Source of the DNA: Promethearchaeota archaeon
GTDB lineage: Archaea > Asgardarchaeota > Lokiarchaeia > Sigyniarchaeales > SOKP01
DNA: 64,000 nucleotides
Reading direction: 5' to 3'
NCBI GenBank assembly: GCA_019058445.1
Contig: JAHPZA010000010.1
Location: forward strand, 448,001 to 512,000
The first letter of the stretch is position 1; every line of letters begins with the position of its first letter. Shown piece by piece: positions 43,604-54,659 of this stretch. The notes under the pieces were generated by a model. That model searched no databases, had not been told where the DNA came from, and saw nothing but the letters and a program-made list of their open reading frames with translations. A program made the position numbers and the translations under genes.

Positions 43604-44224
43604 ATGGCACAACAAATTATGGTTCCAGGTGCGTGTGGAGTAGCAATAAAGTGTAAAGATGGAGTTGTTCTTGGAAATGATCGAAGAGCGACTTGGGGGT
43701 ATACTGTTACGAATAAATCTACAAGAAAGGTATTTAAAATAACAGACCACATAGGACTCACAGCATACGGATTAATTGGGGACTTTCAGTTATTAGTTAA
43801 AATTTTAAGAGCTCAAGCGAATCTATATGAATTAGATGCAGGGGAAAGAATTTCCACTAAGAGTATGGGAAAATTGGTTTCTAATTACCTCTACTCCAGA
43901 AAAATGTACCCCTTATATACAAACTTAGTTATCGCTGGAATGGAAATAGATGGTATCCCTTCCCTATATACTTTGGATGCCATAGGTTCTTTAATGCCTG
44001 ATGATTATGGCACTGCCGGAACCGGGATGCTATTATCAATTGGAATTTTAGAAGCGGAATATAAGCCTGATATAACTGTTGCGGAGGGTGAAAAATTGGT
44101 GGAAAAGACAATCAGAAATTCAATAACGAGGGATGCGATGAGCGGAAATGGTATAGACATTTTGACTATTACTAAAGATGGTGCCAAAGAAAAGTATATC
44201 GATATTAACGAATTAGGAGAATAA
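43604..44224 (+). CDS. psmB: Proteasome beta subunit lacking the catalytic Thr1
   Basis: DGVVLGNDRRAT, KVFKI, GLIGD, RDAMSGNG; PG-ACG in place of G-TTT. Confidence 0.92.
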   Translation: MAQQIMVPGACGVAIKCKDGVVLGNDRRATWGYTVTNKSTRKVFKITDHIGLTAYGLIGDFQLLVKILRAQANLYELDAGERISTKSMGKLVSNYLYSRKMYPLYTNLVIAGMEIDGIPSLYTLDAIGSLMPDDYGTAGTGMLLSIGILEAEYKPDITVAEGEKLVEKTIRNSITRDAMSGNGIDILTITKDGAKEKYIDINELGE

Positions 44225-44283: not shown

Positions 44284-46371
44284 TTGAATGGTGCTTTTAA
44301 TTTGAGATTAATTAATAACAATTTTAACGATATTGAAGAAATAAACGGATTTTCGAAAGAAGAATTAATTGATATTAAAAGAAAACTAACAAAATTAAAC
44401 TTAGATAAAGCGGATCAAACAGAAATTGAAGGATATCTCTCTGAGAAATTTTCAAGTGAAATAATTGAGTTTTATTCTAATTATCTGAATGAAATAAAAA
44501 CCTTTATTTTTGAAAATCTATTATCGACAACGGATTCTCAAAATAGAATAAATTTTAATCACTTTCCTCTAAAATCTGGAATTAAAAATGAGATTAAAAA
44601 AATATATAATAATTTATTGAATTTAAAGGTAAATGCTCAAAATACGAAGAGATTTTTAAAGAATAGTGCTTTCCTTGATGAGTTGTTAATAACGATCCAA
44701 GATATCATGAAAGAATATCAGGATTTAACTTCTCAATTAAATGTTCCAGAAAATAGAGTTACGGATATTTATGATAATTATGCCTATATCTGGATTGAAA
44801 TTAATAAATTAAAAAATCAATACTTTAAAATCAATAACTTGACAGAAGATTTAACAAATTGGGATGAGTTCCAAGGGTTTTATGAATGTATTAGAAATAA
44901 TATCATCGAATCTACTAAAAAAAAAGAGCGCAAGAAAAAAAATTTCATCATAACTACCCATTTTAATGATATTTATTCATATTTCAGCAAGTTAAAAGGA
45001 GAAAATCCCGATATCTATACAGATTTAATCGCTTTCTTATACAATATAAATCTAATTGAGGAGTTTAAAGAAAAAATAGAGGATCTTGATGAATATGTAA
45101 ATATTCTTGATAGAAAGGAAATTAAAAATAGAATTAAATCTTTAATGAATCCAATAATTAAAAAGTTAATTGAGGATAAAATAAAAGGAACTTTAAACGA
45201 AATTATTGAATTAGATAAAACTTCCAGATTAGGAGATCAGAAAAAAGACATAAACATAAAGAGGGTTTTAGAACAGAAAATTGGTACGTATTTACCTCAA
45301 ATAATTGATTATTATTTAAAAGGATTAGAAAATAAGTATCAAGCTGCTATTAGTGATTTAAAGGGATATGATGAATTTAAAAATGTGGCAAAATTTTATT
45401 CTGAAAAAATAGATATTCTCAATTCTCAAGTTGAGGAAATAGAAAATTATTTTGCTAATTACACTTTAATTTTAAAACCTTATGAGGATATCATAAATAA
45501 ACATAAGAAAACTCTTTCGAATATAACTTCTGAAATTGAAAGAAGGAAAAATGAATATTTATTTTACCTCAAAACTATAAGAAAGGAAAGATTGAGGGAT
45601 AATATAAGAACATTTATTTTTGAGAAAATAACAGAAGTTAATACTTTAATGAGTAAATATCAAGATGAAACTTCACTGATTGTAAGGGAAGAATTTCCTC
45701 AGCTAAAAAAAATGCAAAATATTCTTAGTGAATACAAAGTAAATATTCAAAAAATAAAAGATGAAGTATATCAAAAAATAGATTCTTTTAAAGAAAAAGA
45801 CATTGATATCTATCAAATTATTAAGCAATGGGAGGATAATTTTACACTTAAAAAACAGCAATTAAGTTTTCTCCTGAGTCTGTTAATAAATAAATTGTTT
45901 AAAAGTTTTAAGGATATGATTGAAGAAGAAAAATTGTTATATGAGCACATTACTGATATTACTAATCAAAACGAGAATTATGATAATCTTCCCTTAAATT
46001 TCGCTATATCAAATCTTTTAGTTGACAAATTAACTGAAGATGAATTAGATGAAAGAATTAACGAGATTCACTCAAAAATTGAAAACCTCAATAAAGAAAT
46101 AGAACTTTACAGAGCAGAACTCTCCAATTTAAAAAGAACTTTAGCAAATAAGGTAAAGATCAGAGAGGGAATAACTAGTGATGATATCCAATGCGGTGTC
46201 TGCCGAAAAAAGTTTGATTTTTCGAAAGATAAAATAATAAAATGTCCGTTTTGCGGTGCTGTATTTCATTATTTATGCGTTGCGTCATGGCTCAGTAAAC
46301 ACAACGCTTGCCCTTCATGTCAGAATACTTTTCTTGATCCAAATGCAGGTATTTATTCTGATCAAGAATAA
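44284..46371 (+). CDS. Coiled-coil protein with C-terminal RING finger, putative E3 ligase
   Basis: C-x2-C-x13-C-x2-C-x4-H-x2-C-x3-W-x6-C-x2-C. Confidence 0.8.
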   Translation: MNGAFNLRLINNNFNDIEEINGFSKEELIDIKRKLTKLNLDKADQTEIEGYLSEKFSSEIIEFYSNYLNEIKTFIFENLLSTTDSQNRINFNHFPLKSGIKNEIKKIYNNLLNLKVNAQNTKRFLKNSAFLDELLITIQDIMKEYQDLTSQLNVPENRVTDIYDNYAYIWIEINKLKNQYFKINNLTEDLTNWDEFQGFYECIRNNIIESTKKKERKKKNFIITTHFNDIYSYFSKLKGENPDIYTDLIAFLYNINLIEEFKEKIEDLDEYVNILDRKEIKNRIKSLMNPIIKKLIEDKIKGTLNEIIELDKTSRLGDQKKDINIKRVLEQKIGTYLPQIIDYYLKGLENKYQAAISDLKGYDEFKNVAKFYSEKIDILNSQVEEIENYFANYTLILKPYEDIINKHKKTLSNITSEIERRKNEYLFYLKTIRKERLRDNIRTFIFEKITEVNTLMSKYQDETSLIVREEFPQLKKMQNILSEYKVNIQKIKDEVYQKIDSFKEKDIDIYQIIKQWEDNFTLKKQQLSFLLSLLINKLFKSFKDMIEEEKLLYEHITDITNQNENYDNLPLNFAISNLLVDKLTEDELDERINEIHSKIENLNKEIELYRAELSNLKRTLANKVKIREGITSDDIQCGVCRKKFDFSKDKIIKCPFCGAVFHYLCVASWLSKHNACPSCQNTFLDPNAGIYSDQE

Positions 46372-46397: not shown

Positions 46398-47588
46398 TCA
46401 ATATTTATATTTTGGAGGTGTTTTACTCTTAATATTATTATGAGGAGTTTTACTTTTAATATGATCTTTTTGTATTGCTTTAAATTTTTTTATCTCTGTG
46501 TCCAATCTCTTTTTTTCTTGCTGCAATTGCGCTTTCTCTTGATCTAATTTCTTTCTTTCGCGTTGTATATTCTTTTTTTCATTATTTATATTATTTTTTT
46601 CTTTTTCTATTCGATTTTTTTCACTCTCATTATAAGATTGAATTTTCTCTTTTTCATGTTGTAATCTTCTTAATTCATTTTTTAAACGTTCGATTTTATT
46701 CTCTAAATCTCGTGCCTTATTTTCTAATGAGCCTTTTCTTTTTTCTAATCCCGGGATTTTATTTCGTATATTTTTTACGAGAGCCTCCTCATTTTTTCTA
46801 TCTCTACCCAACGTCTGTTTTTCTCTGTTAATTTCATTTTTCAAGCTTTCTAACTCAATAGTTTTCTTTTTCATATCTTTTAATTTCTTATTGAGATCAT
46901 CGGTTTTTTTCCTAAGATTTTCTCTAGCATCTTTAAGTTTTTTCTTTTCGGCATTAATTAGAGCTTGGCTATTTATTACTTCTTTACGTATACTATCTAA
47001 TTCGTTTTTTAAACGGTTTCTATCATTTGAAAGGTGATCAATTTCAGTTGTTAAATTATCTACTTCTTTCTCTAGTTTAAATTTCTTGTTTTCCAGATCA
47101 TTTCCTCTTTTTTCTAACCCAGGGATTTTAGTTTTTATTTCTGTTAATTGCTTTCCTCTTTTTTGCTTTTCAAAATCCCAATCCTTTTTCTCATTATTAA
47201 TATCATCTCTTACCTTGTTTAACTCATCTCTTTGCTTATTAATTTCATTTATGATATTAGCATATTCCTGTTTCTTTCCTTGAATTTTTTTATTTCCATC
47301 ATTGATTATTTTTTTAATATTATCTAATTCGTTAGCTAATTGATCCTTTTCATAAATTAATTCCTTAATTTCATTTTCTCTTTCCTTTCTTTTTCTTTCT
47401 AAATCTTTAATCGCTTCTTGATATCCTTGTATTTTACTAACTATATTTTCCCATTCCCTACGTTCTTCTTCCAATTTTTGGCGCTCGAACTTAATTTTTT
47501 TGAGCAAAGTTTTATCAGCAGTTAATATTTCTTCTTTCTCAGGAGTTTTTTCTTGGATTTGATACTTAGGAGGTTTGTTATTCTTCAT
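46398..47588 (-). CDS. Long coiled-coil protein with internal duplication
   Basis: Continuous heptads; KIPGLEKR…LENK occurs twice. Confidence 0.75.
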   Translation of the reverse strand: MKNNKPPKYQIQEKTPEKEEILTADKTLLKKIKFERQKLEEERREWENIVSKIQGYQEAIKDLERKRKERENEIKELIYEKDQLANELDNIKKIINDGNKKIQGKKQEYANIINEINKQRDELNKVRDDINNEKKDWDFEKQKRGKQLTEIKTKIPGLEKRGNDLENKKFKLEKEVDNLTTEIDHLSNDRNRLKNELDSIRKEVINSQALINAEKKKLKDARENLRKKTDDLNKKLKDMKKKTIELESLKNEINREKQTLGRDRKNEEALVKNIRNKIPGLEKRKGSLENKARDLENKIERLKNELRRLQHEKEKIQSYNESEKNRIEKEKNNINNEKKNIQRERKKLDQEKAQLQQEKKRLDTEIKKFKAIQKDHIKSKTPHNNIKSKTPPKYKY

Positions 47589-47797: not shown

Positions 47798-48139
47798 ATG
47801 GGTTTTGATGATGAATTTGATGAGGATTTAGGAGAACCTGAGGAAAAGACCCCTATGAAGTCTAAAACTCCATCGACTCCCCCAGCAGGGGGAAAGAAGA
47901 TGAATCTCTACTTTACATCTACAATTGGACCTGGTGAGAAGCGACAGAAATTATTAGTTGATGACGGTAATACCGTCGGTGCTGTTAAACAGACAATTGG
48001 CAATATTTTTGGATTAGATCCAGCAGATTTTCATTTATCTTCGGGAGGAGTTACAATGGATGATAGCTCTCCTTTAAGCTCATATAATGTAAATGATGGC
48101 GATGAAGTACTTTTAATACCAGCAAGTACTGCTGGTTAG
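47798..48139 (+). CDS. Ubiquitin-like modifier with disordered N-tail and C-terminal Ala-Gly
   Basis: Beta-grasp pattern TVGAVKQTI…FHLSSGG…LSSYNVNDGDEVLLIPASTAG*; directly upstream of E1. Confidence 0.88.
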   Translation: MGFDDEFDEDLGEPEEKTPMKSKTPSTPPAGGKKMNLYFTSTIGPGEKRQKLLVDDGNTVGAVKQTIGNIFGLDPADFHLSSGGVTMDDSSPLSSYNVNDGDEVLLIPASTAG

Positions 48140-49591: not shown

Positions 49592-50119
49592 ATGAGTTTA
49601 AGAAGTAGTCGAGTTTCTCAGGATTTTGCTTCGCTTAAAAAGTTACTTAAGGATGGAACCATCGCTCAACTAAAACCTTTTAATCCAAAACAGAAAAGTA
49701 TTGATCATTTAGCTGTCCTGCTTAAAGGTCCTAAGGGGACCGCTTATCAAGGAGGAGTATTTAAACTGGAAATCAAATATCCCCCTACGTATCCCAGACA
49801 TCCACCATTCGTTCGCTTACATACTCCTATTTGGCATCCTAATTTTTGGCCAAAACCTTCTGAGTATCCTGGTCAGCGAAATATTTGTCTAGCGCTCGTA
49901 GATCCGAGTTTAGTAGGGAAAAAAGGAGGTTGGAGCCCATCAAAAACAATTGTCACTGTAATACAAGCAATTACAGCAATGTTTAATACGCGAGGTTTAT
50001 TCATTAATCCTACTGATGTATTTAACAAAAAAGCAGCTCTCGAAATGATGAATGATCGCAAAAATTTTGAGAAAAAGGTAAAGCATTTAGTTAAGAAGTA
50101 TGCTAATCAAAAATGGTGA
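49592..50119 (+). CDS. Ubiquitin-conjugating enzyme E2
   Basis: GPKGTAYQGGVF, YPRHPP, WHPN…NICL, WSPS. Confidence 0.95.
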   Translation: MSLRSSRVSQDFASLKKLLKDGTIAQLKPFNPKQKSIDHLAVLLKGPKGTAYQGGVFKLEIKYPPTYPRHPPFVRLHTPIWHPNFWPKPSEYPGQRNICLALVDPSLVGKKGGWSPSKTIVTVIQAITAMFNTRGLFINPTDVFNKKAALEMMNDRKNFEKKVKHLVKKYANQKW

Positions 50120-50940
50120 ATAGAAAAATGGAAAATGAAAAATCTGATGAAGATGCCATTAAAGAGGCCATAAAAAAGAGAATTAAAAATAAAATTAAGA
50201 AAGAACTATTGGAAGAAATCTATAATGAATTAAAGTTGGAGGAAGATGAATTAGCCGATGAGATTTCTTCATCACTTAGTAAAAATACAAAGAAAATTCC
50301 TACAGAATTACCCCTTTCCACAGAGATAATAAATGATATTAAAACTGAAGAAGTTGCGCCAAAAGATTTAGAAGATGATAAAACAGTAACTATATCAGTG
50401 AAGGCTATTCTCAAAATTGCCAGCCATGCACTGAAATATGCAAATCCAAATATTTCAAAAGATAAATGGGTTGAAGTCATTGGACTTTTGGCAGGTAAGC
50501 AGTATAATTACGGGCCTAAACTCCATATTGAAGATGCTTACCCTATGGGGCACGGCACTGCTGTTTATGCGGAAATTAAAGATTATAAAAATTTTGTAAG
50601 AGCGTTCAATGATATTAAGAAAAAGAAATTATTTATCTGTGGATGGTATCACTCTCATCCGTCATACGGAACATGGATGAGTGATGAAGATATTGGGACT
50701 CAAGCACGATATCAGAAGTTATGGGATAAAGCAATCGCACTTGTGGTTGATCCTTATCAAATTGATGGGACTTCATTAGGTTTTGATATTTTCAGAGCTA
50801 ATTTAAACACGAAAAAGTGGTTTTCTATACCATTTAGCGTCGAGGGTTCGCTTGATGTAAGATTATTACCTGAAATTTTAAATTTTATGAATCCTATAAT
50901 CGAGGGAAAGGCAGCATATCTCGAATATGATGAAGATTGA
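50113..50940 (+). CDS. JAMM/MPN+ isopeptidase (Rpn11/CSN5-like)
   Basis: EVIGLLAG, GWYHSHPSYGTWMSDED, VVDP. Confidence 0.93.
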   Translation: MVNRKMENEKSDEDAIKEAIKKRIKNKIKKELLEEIYNELKLEEDELADEISSSLSKNTKKIPTELPLSTEIINDIKTEEVAPKDLEDDKTVTISVKAILKIASHALKYANPNISKDKWVEVIGLLAGKQYNYGPKLHIEDAYPMGHGTAVYAEIKDYKNFVRAFNDIKKKKLFICGWYHSHPSYGTWMSDEDIGTQARYQKLWDKAIALVVDPYQIDGTSLGFDIFRANLNTKKWFSIPFSVEGSLDVRLLPEILNFMNPIIEGKAAYLEYDED

Positions 50941-50976: not shown

Positions 50977-52155
50977 ATCGCGGTTAAAAAACAGAATCTT
51001 ATCATCTTATTAATTTTTTTTGGTATCGGTGTATTTCACGGTGTATTAATTTCAAATTCATTAAATAATTTTTTTTCTTGGTTATTGGTTGGATGTTGGA
51101 TTCTCTTTACAATTAAATTTTTTGAAAAAAGAAAAGAATATAATGAATATAATTCACAAAAAAATACATCATTCTTTCTCTTAGGTCCTTTAAGTGTGGG
51201 CCTATTTTATAACTTATGGGGTTATTTTACAGGATTATGGGGTGAAAATCTTTTCGAAAATACATTACCATTTTTATATATAAGCCTCTGGACTCTTATA
51301 TTTGCTTTTCCATACTTAATATACGGTTTATATACAATTCGAGCATGTTATACAAAATTTCATGTAGTATATCTCATAAAAACTAGATCTCTAAGTGCCC
51401 GCAAATTCGGAACATTTTATACGCTTTTACTTCTATTTGGAATTTTATTTTATATTGTATTTTTCAATATTATTCTGAATTATTTTTATATCATTGTAGA
51501 GCAAGTTTATTTCTATTTTGATATAATGCTCGTGGTAATATTTTTAACCTTAATTTATATATTCATAAGACACGGAATCTTTGGTTCAGCACGCTCTATG
51601 CCTGAGATTTCTCAAGATTATATAAACCGCCGAAGACAGCGCTTAAGAACAATGACCACTACTCCAGTTAGGGCTGCTCCAAGTAGACCTAAAACTACAA
51701 GAACCACATCACGACCAGCTCCAAGTAGACCTAAAACTACAAGAACCACATCACGACCAGCTTCAAATAGACCTAAAACTACAAAGACCGTTTCACGACC
51801 AGCTCCAAGTAAGCCAAAAACTACAAGAACAACAGCTCAAAAACCAAAAGTCGCTGCAAGTGCTGTCTTTGAGAAATATAAACCAAAAGCAGGAATTCTT
51901 TCATTAGAGGACTTTAAGTGTATATTTTGCTTTCAACTTCCTAAACTTCCTGCTGATACTCATCGTGGAATTGTTTTATGTCCAAATTGTAAACACCCAG
52001 CTCATGCGGATGAATTTAAAGAATGGACTCATGATTCTCCTCTCTGTTCTCGGTGTGATGCCCCAATTCCACCAAGTTTTAGGAGAAATCCCGTGATTAT
52101 CTCTGTCAAACAGTATGTTGATGTAATTAACGAGTATAAAAGAAGAAAGACATAG
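50977..52155 (+). CDS. Polytopic membrane protein with repeat linker and C-terminal RING-like domain (probable ATC start)
   Basis: About 6 TM segments; C-x2-C-x16-C-x2-C-x4-H-x2-E-x3-W-x6-C-x2-C; GGTGAG RBS at 50965. Confidence 0.75.
   Translation: MAVKKQNLIILLIFFGIGVFHGVLISNSLNNFFSWLLVGCWILFTIKFFEKRKEYNEYNSQKNTSFFLLGPLSVGLFYNLWGYFTGLWGENLFENTLPFLYISLWTLIFAFPYLIYGLYTIRACYTKFHVVYLIKTRSLSARKFGTFYTLLLLFGILFYIVFFNIILNYFYIIVEQVYFYFDIMLVVIFLTLIYIFIRHGIFGSARSMPEISQDYINRRRQRLRTMTTTPVRAAPSRPKTTRTTSRPAPSRPKTTRTTSRPASNRPKTTKTVSRPAPSKPKTTRTTAQKPKVAASAVFEKYKPKAGILSLEDFKCIFCFQLPKLPADTHRGIVLCPNCKHPAHADEFKEWTHDSPLCSRCDAPIPPSFRRNPVIISVKQYVDVINEYKRRKT
51676..51832 (+). repeat. 42-bp coding tandem repeat (APSRPKTTRTTSRP), ~3.7 copies
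   Basis: gctccaagtagacctaaaactacaagaaccacatcacgacca repeated. Confidence 0.9.
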
Positions 52156-53768: not shown

Positions 53769-54659
53769 ATGTCCGAAGAATCTCTTGATAATGATGATAA
53801 TTCCAAGTCGGAATTCGTATCGAGACTATACAATTGTCCGAAGTGCAGATTGATGCATACAGTAAAGCTCCCTAAAGATATCGCCCAAAATAAACCTGTT
53901 TTTCCTTTTCCATACGTATTTTTACATTCTTCTGAGGAAGGACTTGATGATATCCTTACTGTTCTTTATATTGATGTAGAACTTCATATACGTGCTGTTG
54001 AAGTTATGGAAGTTGACGAAACCAATATTTTTTCTGAAGATCTTACTAAACAAATTACTGAAAAGTTAATGGATAAGATTGTGAGCTTAGAAGAAGAAAA
54101 TTTACAGTTAAAAGACCTAATTCGCAAAATGGAGTTAGTTAAAGTAAGTGGATTAGAGGGAAAGAATCCAAGAGTTATGAGCATTCCGAAATTGGAATAT
54201 GAATCTGAGATAAAGGAAAAACCAATCACTTTGGAGCCTCAAATTCCAAAACTAAAGGAGATAAATGAAAAAAAGCCATTATTTGATTTACAGGAAATAC
54301 CCATGCCTGAGATTGAGTCTAAAGAACCCATGCCTGAGATTGAGTCTAAAGAACCCATACCCGAGATTAGATCTAAACAACCCATCCTAGAGTCTGAAGA
54401 CTTTTTCGATATAATTAAAGTGTATATTACATCTACGGTTGGACCAGGAGAAAAAAAACAGGATTTACGGGTAAAATTAAGTAATAAAGTCATTGATATT
54501 AAAGATACAATCGGAAAGATCTTTGGTTTAACACCCTCAAATTTCCATCTTTCCTCGGGAGGAATTACATTTGATGAACAGCTGCTCCTAAAGGATTATT
54601 ATATTGAAGAAGGAGACGAAATTCTTATTATTCCTTCAAGCACAGCAGGATTTTTTTAA
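53769..54659 (+). CDS. Zinc-ribbon domain, coiled coil, repeat linker and C-terminal ubiquitin-like domain ending AG-FF
   Basis: CPKC…H; C-terminal domain paralogous to the Ubl at 47798 (TSTVGPGEKKQ, FHLSSGG, GDEILIIPSSTAGFF). Confidence 0.85.
   Translation: MSEESLDNDDNSKSEFVSRLYNCPKCRLMHTVKLPKDIAQNKPVFPFPYVFLHSSEEGLDDILTVLYIDVELHIRAVEVMEVDETNIFSEDLTKQITEKLMDKIVSLEEENLQLKDLIRKMELVKVSGLEGKNPRVMSIPKLEYESEIKEKPITLEPQIPKLKEINEKKPLFDLQEIPMPEIESKEPMPEIESKEPIPEIRSKQPILESEDFFDIIKVYITSTVGPGEKKQDLRVKLSNKVIDIKDTIGKIFGLTPSNFHLSSGGITFDEQLLLKDYYIEEGDEILIIPSSTAGFF
54300..54380 (+). repeat. 27-bp coding tandem repeat (PMPEIESKE), 3 copies
   Basis: cccatgcctgagattgagtctaaagaa twice plus one degenerate copy. 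Confidence 0.9.

Follow-up and report, generated by a model that had tools for sequence, protein, structure and literature searches.

Can a ubiquitin-like protein (Ubl) that ends in Ala-Gly, where ubiquitin ends in Gly-Gly, serve as a conjugated modifier, and to which kind of modifier system would it belong? The question is raised by a gene at positions 47798 to 48139 of a 64,000-nucleotide stretch of DNA from a Promethearchaeota archaeon of the Lokiarchaeia (GenBank assembly GCA_019058445.1, contig JAHPZA010000010.1, positions 448,001 to 512,000), the whole of which we call the window. Judging from sequence comparison and gene neighbourhoods, we consider the product of this gene likely to be the modifier in a complete conjugation cassette of eukaryote type, composed of Ubl, activating enzyme (E1), conjugating enzyme (E2), Rpn11-like JAMM protease, and membrane RING protein, which occurs in Lokiarchaeia and some other Asgard lineages. 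The protein would be conjugated, and its Ala-Gly tail would insulate the pathway.

The open reading frame (ORF) begins with the ATG at 47798 and closes with the TAG stop codon at 48137-48139 on the forward strand, the last codons being GCT GGT TAG. Residues 109 to 113 read ASTAG and are immediately followed by the stop codon, in agreement with the original prediction of a Ubl ending in STAG. The protein is composed of three parts, a 33-residue N-terminal tail, a ubiquitin-type domain, and the end LLIPASTAG. In an AlphaFold2 model built with a 50-sequence alignment, the predicted local distance difference test (pLDDT) is ~90 over the beta-grasp (residues 34 to 108), with the last five residues less certain, and below 50 at residues 1 to 4, 9 to 23, and 25 to 27. 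The tail that had been proposed to precede the beta-grasp is therefore predicted to be disordered, acidic first and then carrying KSKTP and GGKK, with the model setting its length at 33 residues rather than about 34. Structure prediction, suggested earlier as a check on the fold, yields a confident beta-grasp whose best Foldseek match is the Caldiarchaeum ubiquitin (6fno/6fj7, 29-30% identity), followed by ubiquitin variants, ISG15, and NEDD8; target-normalised TM-scores against Caldiarchaeum ubiquitin, ubiquitin, and ISG15 are 0.76-0.9, with a probability of 1.00. The protein matches the Pfam ubiquitin family (PF00240) with 29.7 bits, above the curated cut-off of 25.4, and 48 of the 50 aligned relatives match it as well (E <= 0.01). 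A PDB search with the profile of the Ala-Gly family ranks ubiquitin first, and NCBIfam holds no model for the Ubl or for the E2.

The Ala-Gly end is conserved across the family. With a word-indexed search, 839 relatives were retrieved; those with a named organism all come from Asgard metagenome bins (Promethearchaeota/Lokiarchaeota, Hel-, Hermod-, and Hodarchaeota). Of the 120 database proteins nearest to the modifier, 87 have AG as their last two residues, and in 33 a few residues follow the AG. P108, A112, and G113 are invariant in the 50-member alignment, and S110 (49/50) and T111 (48/50) nearly so, giving a fixed family end of P-[A/S]-S-T-A-G with Ala where ubiquitin has Gly75. Orthologues linked to an E1 gene show the same picture, the stop codon following directly after AG in 47 of 63 and 1-4 variable extra residues being present in the other 16. 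The Gly-Gly terminal motif is absent from both the 120 database relatives and the 63 E1-linked orthologues. The original prediction had named orthologues ending mostly in GG as the outcome that would speak against it; the opposite is found, and a conserved single-Gly, more exactly Ala-Gly, ubiquitin-like modifier stands.

Some members carry sequence beyond the terminal Gly or are part of larger proteins. An exhaustive HMMER search over cluster representatives found many longer proteins in which the domain comes last and ends in STAG, as well as the tandem relatives P0122 with three units (STAG in each) and P0123 with two (SQAG and STAG). An acidic tail, a KSK[TQ]P-type motif, a beta-grasp, and an S-[TQ]-A-G end are repeated in each tandem unit, and the whole proteins end in STAG-VL or STAG-IY. 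Since every unit ends in S-[TQ]-A-G, cleavage after the Gly is implied. The short variable extensions, the fusions, and the polyubiquitin-like tandems together speak for cleavage by a protease after the Gly, which would then be the mature reactive end. The earlier view that no maturation is needed is therefore right for the C-terminus of this gene, and wrong for the family, with its 1-4 extra residues, and for the paralogues of this genome that end in STAG-YE and STAG-FF. Because the C-terminal tail has no Arg, no tryptic di-Gly remnant is possible; counted from the last Lys or Arg before the end, the remnant is 49 residues long for this modifier and 14-49 in the family, so that standard di-Gly proteomics would miss it, as had been anticipated.

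The genes for Ubl, E1, E2, JAMM protease, and RING-type protein are clustered on one strand between 47798 and 52155, and this arrangement is kept in related loci (Table 1; occurrence was counted over 80 related loci from species-representative genomes). The E1 has a match at 64/80 loci, and at 63 it starts no more than 400 bp downstream of the Ubl. Compared with solved structures, it is closest to Uba1, UBA2, and UBA3 (1e-39 to 1e-32), with UBA5 (7e-16), Uba4, and ATG7 (4e-8) far behind; the Gly-rich ATP motif is present, and its Cys motif aligns with the catalytic Cys of Uba1. The E2, found at 60/80 loci, has a generic UBC fold according to its PDB matches and a mean column identity of 86% over 27 orthologues. 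The best solved relative of the JAMM protease (54/80 loci) is the Caldiarchaeum Rpn11-like protein 6fjv, followed by Rpn11 and CSN5. The stop of the E2 gene and the start of the JAMM gene share 7 nucleotides (50113-50119), an overlap that suggests translational coupling. The probable E3 at the end of the cluster, found at 55/80 loci, has a long hydrophobic N-terminal half and a C-terminus of the pattern CxxC...CxxC...H...CxxC. As for a type-1 modifier, an invariant G113 at the end or behind a short propeptide is found together with an adjacent E1 with an aligned Cys and an E2 with HPN-x14-C. The 296-residue paralogue further downstream would need two residues removed to expose its Gly.

Table 1. 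Modifier gene, parts of its product, and neighbouring genes in the window (aa, amino acids)
Feature	Position	Strand	Basis
Proteasome beta subunit gene, upstream of the cluster	43604..44224	+	Pfam Proteasome 1.6e-49; linked at only 8/80 loci
695-aa helical protein with C-terminal RING finger	44284..46371	+	Pfam zf-RING_2 9.7e-8; at only 10/80 loci
Coiled-coil protein, 396 aa, divergently encoded, ending in two IKSKTP motifs	46398..47588	-	Translation
Ala-Gly ubiquitin-like modifier gene, 113 aa + TAG stop	47798..48139	+	ORF/translation, PF00240 match, 839 relatives
Disordered N-terminal tail, residues 1-33, acidic first half and basic second half	47798..47896	+	pLDDT <50, family charge, codon differences
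Acidic/aromatic block FDDEFDEDL, residues 3-11	47804..47830	+	Translation
KSKTP motif, residues 21-25 (family form hydrophobic-x-S-K-T-P)	47858..47872	+	Translation
Ubiquitin-type beta-grasp, residues 34-108	47897..48121	+	AlphaFold2 pLDDT ~90; Foldseek
C-terminal tail A-S-T-A-G, residues 109-113; Gly113 is the predicted conjugation residue	48122..48136	+	Translation, invariance
E1-like activating enzyme, 410 aa	48257..49489	+	Pfam ThiF 1.3e-60
E2 conjugating enzyme, 175 aa, HPN-x14-Cys	49592..50119	+	Pfam UQ_con 1e-24; PDB E2 matches
Rpn11-like JAMM/MPN metalloprotease, 275 aa, HxHx7Sx2D intact	50113..50940	+	Pfam JAB 1.2e-13
Probable E3: hydrophobic protein, probably in the membrane, ending in a RING-like zinc finger	51085..52155	+	Translation; weak Pfam RING/zinc-ribbon matches
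Paralogue, 296 aa: putative CxxC zinc-binding N-terminus, long helical repeat-rich region, Ala-Gly Ubl domain ending SSTAG-FF	53769..54659	+	Translation; family profile 3e-35

The N-terminal tail, which reads MG-FDDEFDEDL-GEPEEKTPM-KSKTP-STPPAGGKK, appears to be translated and under purifying selection, its codons showing 6-8 synonymous and 1-2 non-synonymous differences from three close orthologues. A search for sequencing runs brought up DNA metagenomes from sediment and soil, and no RNA run among them. The median charge in the family is -8 over the first 16 tail residues and +3 over the remainder. Of the 120 closest relatives, 96% have an F-[DN]-E-[DEN]-[LF] block. SKTP occurs in 95% of relatives, in most cases 20 residues ahead of a STIGP turn. 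Within the 50-member alignment, K23 is kept in 45, T24 in 43, and P25 in 48 sequences, resulting in a conserved core of hydrophobic-x-S-K23-T-P. The same motif is found on the coiled-coil neighbour, the C-terminus of which reads ...IKSKTPHNNIKSKTPPKYKY; orthologues of this protein are present at 54/80 loci, and 45 of the 54 have 1-3 C-terminal copies of I-K-[ST]-K-T-P. Because three of the four KSKTP copies in the genome sit in the modifier and the coiled-coil protein, and because the motif is co-conserved at 45/54 loci, KSKTP seems to be a private element of the cassette, acting as a shared docking or a shared acceptor site. The modifier tail probably serves for docking and/or, through K23, offers the lysine on which chains are built. 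When the complex of Ubl residues 1-40 with the E2 was predicted (27-row alignment for the E2; no control runs), the score was 0.01, the mark being 0.32.

A profile search puts the number of Ala-Gly family members in the genome (4.6 Mb, 92.6% complete) at four: the cluster gene, a free paralogue ending in STAG-YE, the 296-residue STAG-FF fusion, and a membrane protein ending in IPSRIPQK without a Gly. The free paralogue has 120 residues (L004:1345-1707; G000 C6, ~374 kb), and the next gene encodes a 222-residue protein (1786-2454) with Thr/Arg-rich repeats and a RING-like C-terminus as in the protein at 51085-52155. A pair of a Ubl and a RING-like protein is also seen at L024, L025, and L027. 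The membrane protein of ~270 residues (L005:1474-2301, reverse strand; G000 C6, ~372 kb) has a Ubl-related C-terminal domain that ends in IPSR(K/I)... without Gly and therefore cannot be conjugated. It is also present at most related loci, and at many of them its gene has the opposite orientation and is located next to a second STAG Ubl gene, upstream of the E1-linked copy.

The same genome encodes a Gly-Gly Ubl of at least 74 residues that ends in VMATQAGG-I (L098:8171-8395; G000 C9, ~758 kb). Its relatives have ~83-85 residues and begin ~10 residues further upstream (M..QYRFRLTG), and the listed start of the gene (GTG, 74 residues) is probably too short. In this family, which includes Candidatus Lokiarchaeum ossiferum, xxGG followed by 0-12 residues is found in 103 of 120 members. 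BLASTP between the Ala-Gly and Gly-Gly Ubls of the genome found no similarity, and the profile search of the genome with the Ala-Gly family did not detect the Gly-Gly copy; the two belong to separate families. Seven ThiF-family genes and three E1-E2 neighbourhoods, including the modifier cluster, are present. One of the other two (L099:321-7083; G000 C10, ~380-387 kb) consists of a gene for a 1260-residue MIT/TPR protein, followed by a 528-residue E1, and a 171-residue E2 on the opposite strand past a HAD hydrolase gene. Since no Ubl gene lies adjacent to this set, it is a candidate for the machinery of the Gly-Gly modifier. The third cluster (L100:4392-6506; G000 C9, ~220-222.5 kb) encodes a JAB protease (162 residues), an E1 (292 residues), and a divergent E2-like protein (193 residues), with an AAA-like gene upstream, and is nearer to bacterial-type JAB-E1-E2 operons than to the eukaryote-like cassette.

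From these parts, we infer how the cassette could work. The adjacent E1 would adenylate the free carboxylate of Gly113 and take the modifier onto its catalytic Cys, from which it would be handed on to the Cys of the E2, with RING proteins steering the transfer to Lys residues of targets. The JAMM protease would take the modifier off again and would also trim the 1-4-residue propeptides, the fusions, and the tandem poly-tags of paralogues and orthologues. The 33-residue tail would stay on the mature tag, as a docking element and/or with K23 as an acceptor for chains. The P-[A/S]-S-T-A-G tail would be read by the cognate E1 and JAMM protease as a specificity code, separating the system from the Gly-Gly family and the other E1/E2 sets. 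In Caldiarchaeum ubiquitin (CsUb), mutating the penultimate Gly (Gly77Ala) makes cleavage by its Rpn11 much slower (PMC6043591), so where Ala occupies this position naturally, it is plausible that a co-adapted protease is required and that the residue could serve to tell pathways apart. As a Gly-Gly family and other E1/E2 sets coexist with the cassette, and given the effect of Gly77Ala, the fixed Ala-Gly tail is most likely a pathway-specificity code that insulates the system.

Several observations weigh against this reading. The proteasome and large RING genes are linked at only 8-10 of the 80 loci, and a role in degradation is for this reason not established. The tandem proteins P0122 and P0123 lie on ~1.2-kb contigs without neighbouring genes or a named organism. 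KSKTP is not a proteome-wide motif, with four copies in ~4,100 ORFs against ~1 expected, and we rejected it as a proteome-wide acceptor consensus; as an acceptor site it would allow only a very narrow range of substrates. A bolder version, in which hydrophobic-x-S-K-T-P is the acceptor or recognition site of the pathway, is unlikely. It would make the Ala-Gly system a consensus-directed, chain-forming archaeal modifier, functionally analogous to SUMO, served by ubiquitin/NEDD8-type enzymes and orthogonal to Gly-Gly ubiquitin via the Ala-Gly tail.

Alternatively, the protein may never be conjugated and act, in the manner of Hub1 or UBL-domain proteins, as an adaptor or regulator that binds its partners non-covalently and has an Ala-Gly end of purely structural importance. 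Relatives that cannot be conjugated, the membrane proteins ending in IPSR(K/I)..., do exist in this genome and at most related loci, and the conserved tail motifs resemble docking elements. However, the exposed and invariant terminal Gly, the short propeptides of variable sequence, the tandem and fusion precursors, and the closely linked genes for E1, E2, and JAMM are hallmarks of a conjugated modifier, which makes the adaptor improbable.

We consider it decidedly improbable that the protein represents a new class of single-Gly modifiers that is akin to the non-ubiquitin Ubls UFM1, ATG8, and ATG12 or ancestral to them and has a SUMO-like chain-forming tail, as the original prediction had it. 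In its favour, the mature forms of UFM1, ATG8, and ATG12 end in one Gly after a non-Gly residue, as this modifier does. The conserved Lys of the flexible tail and the weak matches to the SUMO-type Rad60-SLD model in 10 of 50 members also point in this direction. On the other side, these three belong to other Ubl families, and their non-canonical E1s (UBA5, ATG7) are only weakly matched by the E1 of the cassette, which is of the canonical Uba1/UBA2/UBA3 type, while the E2 has an ordinary UBC fold. None of the 50 members matches the Pfam models of UFM1, ATG8, ATG12, or URM1, and the profile and fold rankings by which we placed the protein among Ubls point away from UFM1 and ATG8/12, the nearest structures being Caldiarchaeum ubiquitin and ubiquitin.

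The distribution of the family is also relevant here. Ala-Gly members are found in 122 of 301 genomes sampled across the phylum and in nine of 30 sampled Asgard families; they are near-universal in the window's own family (60/68 genomes) and occur in eight others. None is found in the 76 genomes of the largest other family searched, nor in twenty more families. Because the family is present in only 9/30 sampled families, this patchy and clade-bound spread looks more like that of a derived, lineage-specific variant than that of an ancestral class. The single Gly thus seems to be a feature of a canonical ubiquitin/NEDD8/SUMO-type cascade without a link to the UFM1/ATG systems, and the idea that it informs the origin of non-ubiquitin Ubls is not borne out by the E1 ranking, the Caldiarchaeum ubiquitin-like fold, or the distribution.

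The tail recalls that of SUMO. The flexible N-terminal tail of SUMO-2/3 carries an acceptor site for chains, and here, too, a Lys-bearing flexible extension, disordered, conserved, and with a near-invariant K23, precedes a ubiquitin-type fold. This is an analogy only, however. The modifier ends in Ala-Gly and SUMO in Gly-Gly, and the conserved tail motif is psi-x-S-K-T-P, without a psi-K-x-E site. The Rad60-SLD model is not matched by the window protein (E <= 0.1), and its weak matches in 10/50 relatives compare with 48/50 for ubiquitin. The SUMO E1 has two subunits (SAE1/UBA2 type). The operon has a single E1 gene, and other ThiF-family genes are located elsewhere in the genome.

A sulfur carrier or dual-function protein of the MoaD/ThiS/URM1/SAMP kind with ThiF-type activation is very improbable. 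In its favour, the E1 is a member of the ThiF superfamily with some score against the MoeB/ThiF models, albeit far below their cut-offs. Neither the window protein (E <= 0.1) nor the 50 aligned members (E <= 0.01) match ThiS, MoaD, or Urm1, Pfam reports no rhodanese domain on the E1, and other compact ThiF-type genes elsewhere in the genome are available for cofactor roles. E2, RING, and Rpn11-like genes lie within the operon, and a role as a sulfur carrier only, the second outcome named earlier as speaking against the modifier, is therefore unlikely. Scarcely credible is a mis-called start that would make the tail an annotation artefact and the protein an ordinary tail-less Ubl of 79 residues beginning at Met35, despite an in-frame ATG directly before the first strand with a purine-rich stretch ahead of it: the tail codons show purifying selection, the first Met is aligned in 49/50 relatives whereas position 35 is Met in only 3/50 and position 20 in 7/50, the tail motifs are family-wide and also present within tandem and fusion proteins (each P0122 unit having its own tail), and a GGT-GA-like sequence, presumably a ribosome-binding site, lies 7 nucleotides before the ATG at 47798, with an AT-rich, TATA-like region further upstream.

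A conjugated modifier with its own cassette has its closest known counterpart in the operon-encoded system of Caldiarchaeum subterraneum, which comprises CsUb, E1, E2, a small RING protein, and CsRpn11 (PMC5654768, PMC6043591). Both are archaeal, operon-encoded cascades of eukaryote type, CsUb being the nearest solved Ubl and CsRpn11 the nearest solved relative of the JAMM protease, and short C-terminal propeptides occur also in precursors of the Ala-Gly family. However, CsUb ends in Gly-Gly followed by a 9-residue propeptide, whereas the end here is an invariant Ala-Gly, without a propeptide in this copy. CsUb also has no long N-terminal tail in the solved chains of 80-90 residues, in contrast to the conserved 33-residue disordered tail, and in place of the small RING finger the putative E3s are the large membrane RING-like protein and the 695-residue RING protein.

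Among Asgard archaea, a Helarchaeial pro-ubiquitin with a Gly-Gly end has been shown to conjugate (bioRxiv 10.1101/2023.07.25.550441), and Heimdall and Odin ubiquitins bind ESCRT-I (PMC9192718). The phylum and the kind of machinery are common to these proteins and the Ala-Gly modifier, and a member of the Gly-Gly family occurs in this genome as well. They nevertheless form a separate family with another end motif and without the acidic/KSKTP tail, and the Gly-Gly gene of this genome does not lie beside an E1-E2-JAMM cassette. With ubiquitin, NEDD8, and ISG15, the modifier has in common the fold, the Pfam family, a canonical E1 with catalytic Cys, a UBC-type E2, RING, and JAMM, and its tandem poly-tag relatives recall polyubiquitin. 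It differs from ubiquitin, with which it has ~22% identity, in the Ala at the penultimate position, the C-terminal tail without Arg, and the long N-terminal tail.

Caldiarchaeum and Asgard archaea have provided earlier examples of operons of this kind (PMC5654768, PMC6043591, PMC9192718, bioRxiv 10.1101/2023.07.25.550441). What sets the present, lineage-restricted variant apart from them is its end in Ala-Gly, its conserved tail, and the motif common to the tail and the coiled-coil neighbour. We found no description of an Asgard modifier ending in Ala-Gly in the literature searched, the coverage of which did not extend to subscription papers and supplements, and its novelty is thus unproven.

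Asgard ubiquitin systems serve to reconstruct the origin of eukaryotic protein tagging, and experiments so far have dealt with modifiers of the Gly-Gly type, taken from Caldiarchaeum or from Helarchaeial, Heimdall, and Odin archaea. The E1-E2-JAMM-RING cassette that is widespread in Lokiarchaeia-type genomes appears instead to serve an Ala-Gly modifier with an obligatory disordered tail, beside a Gly-Gly family in one cell. This would mean that several orthogonal Ubl pathways are already present in these archaea, and that a canonical E1/E2 cascade can do without a Gly at the penultimate position. Searches of Asgard proteomes for the K-GG remnant would miss the pathway entirely, whereas, from the sequence, a Glu-C digest should leave the 10-residue remnant VLLIPASTAG. 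The family may furthermore lend itself, as a natural variant, to studies of how the tail of a modifier is read by E1s and JAMM proteases.

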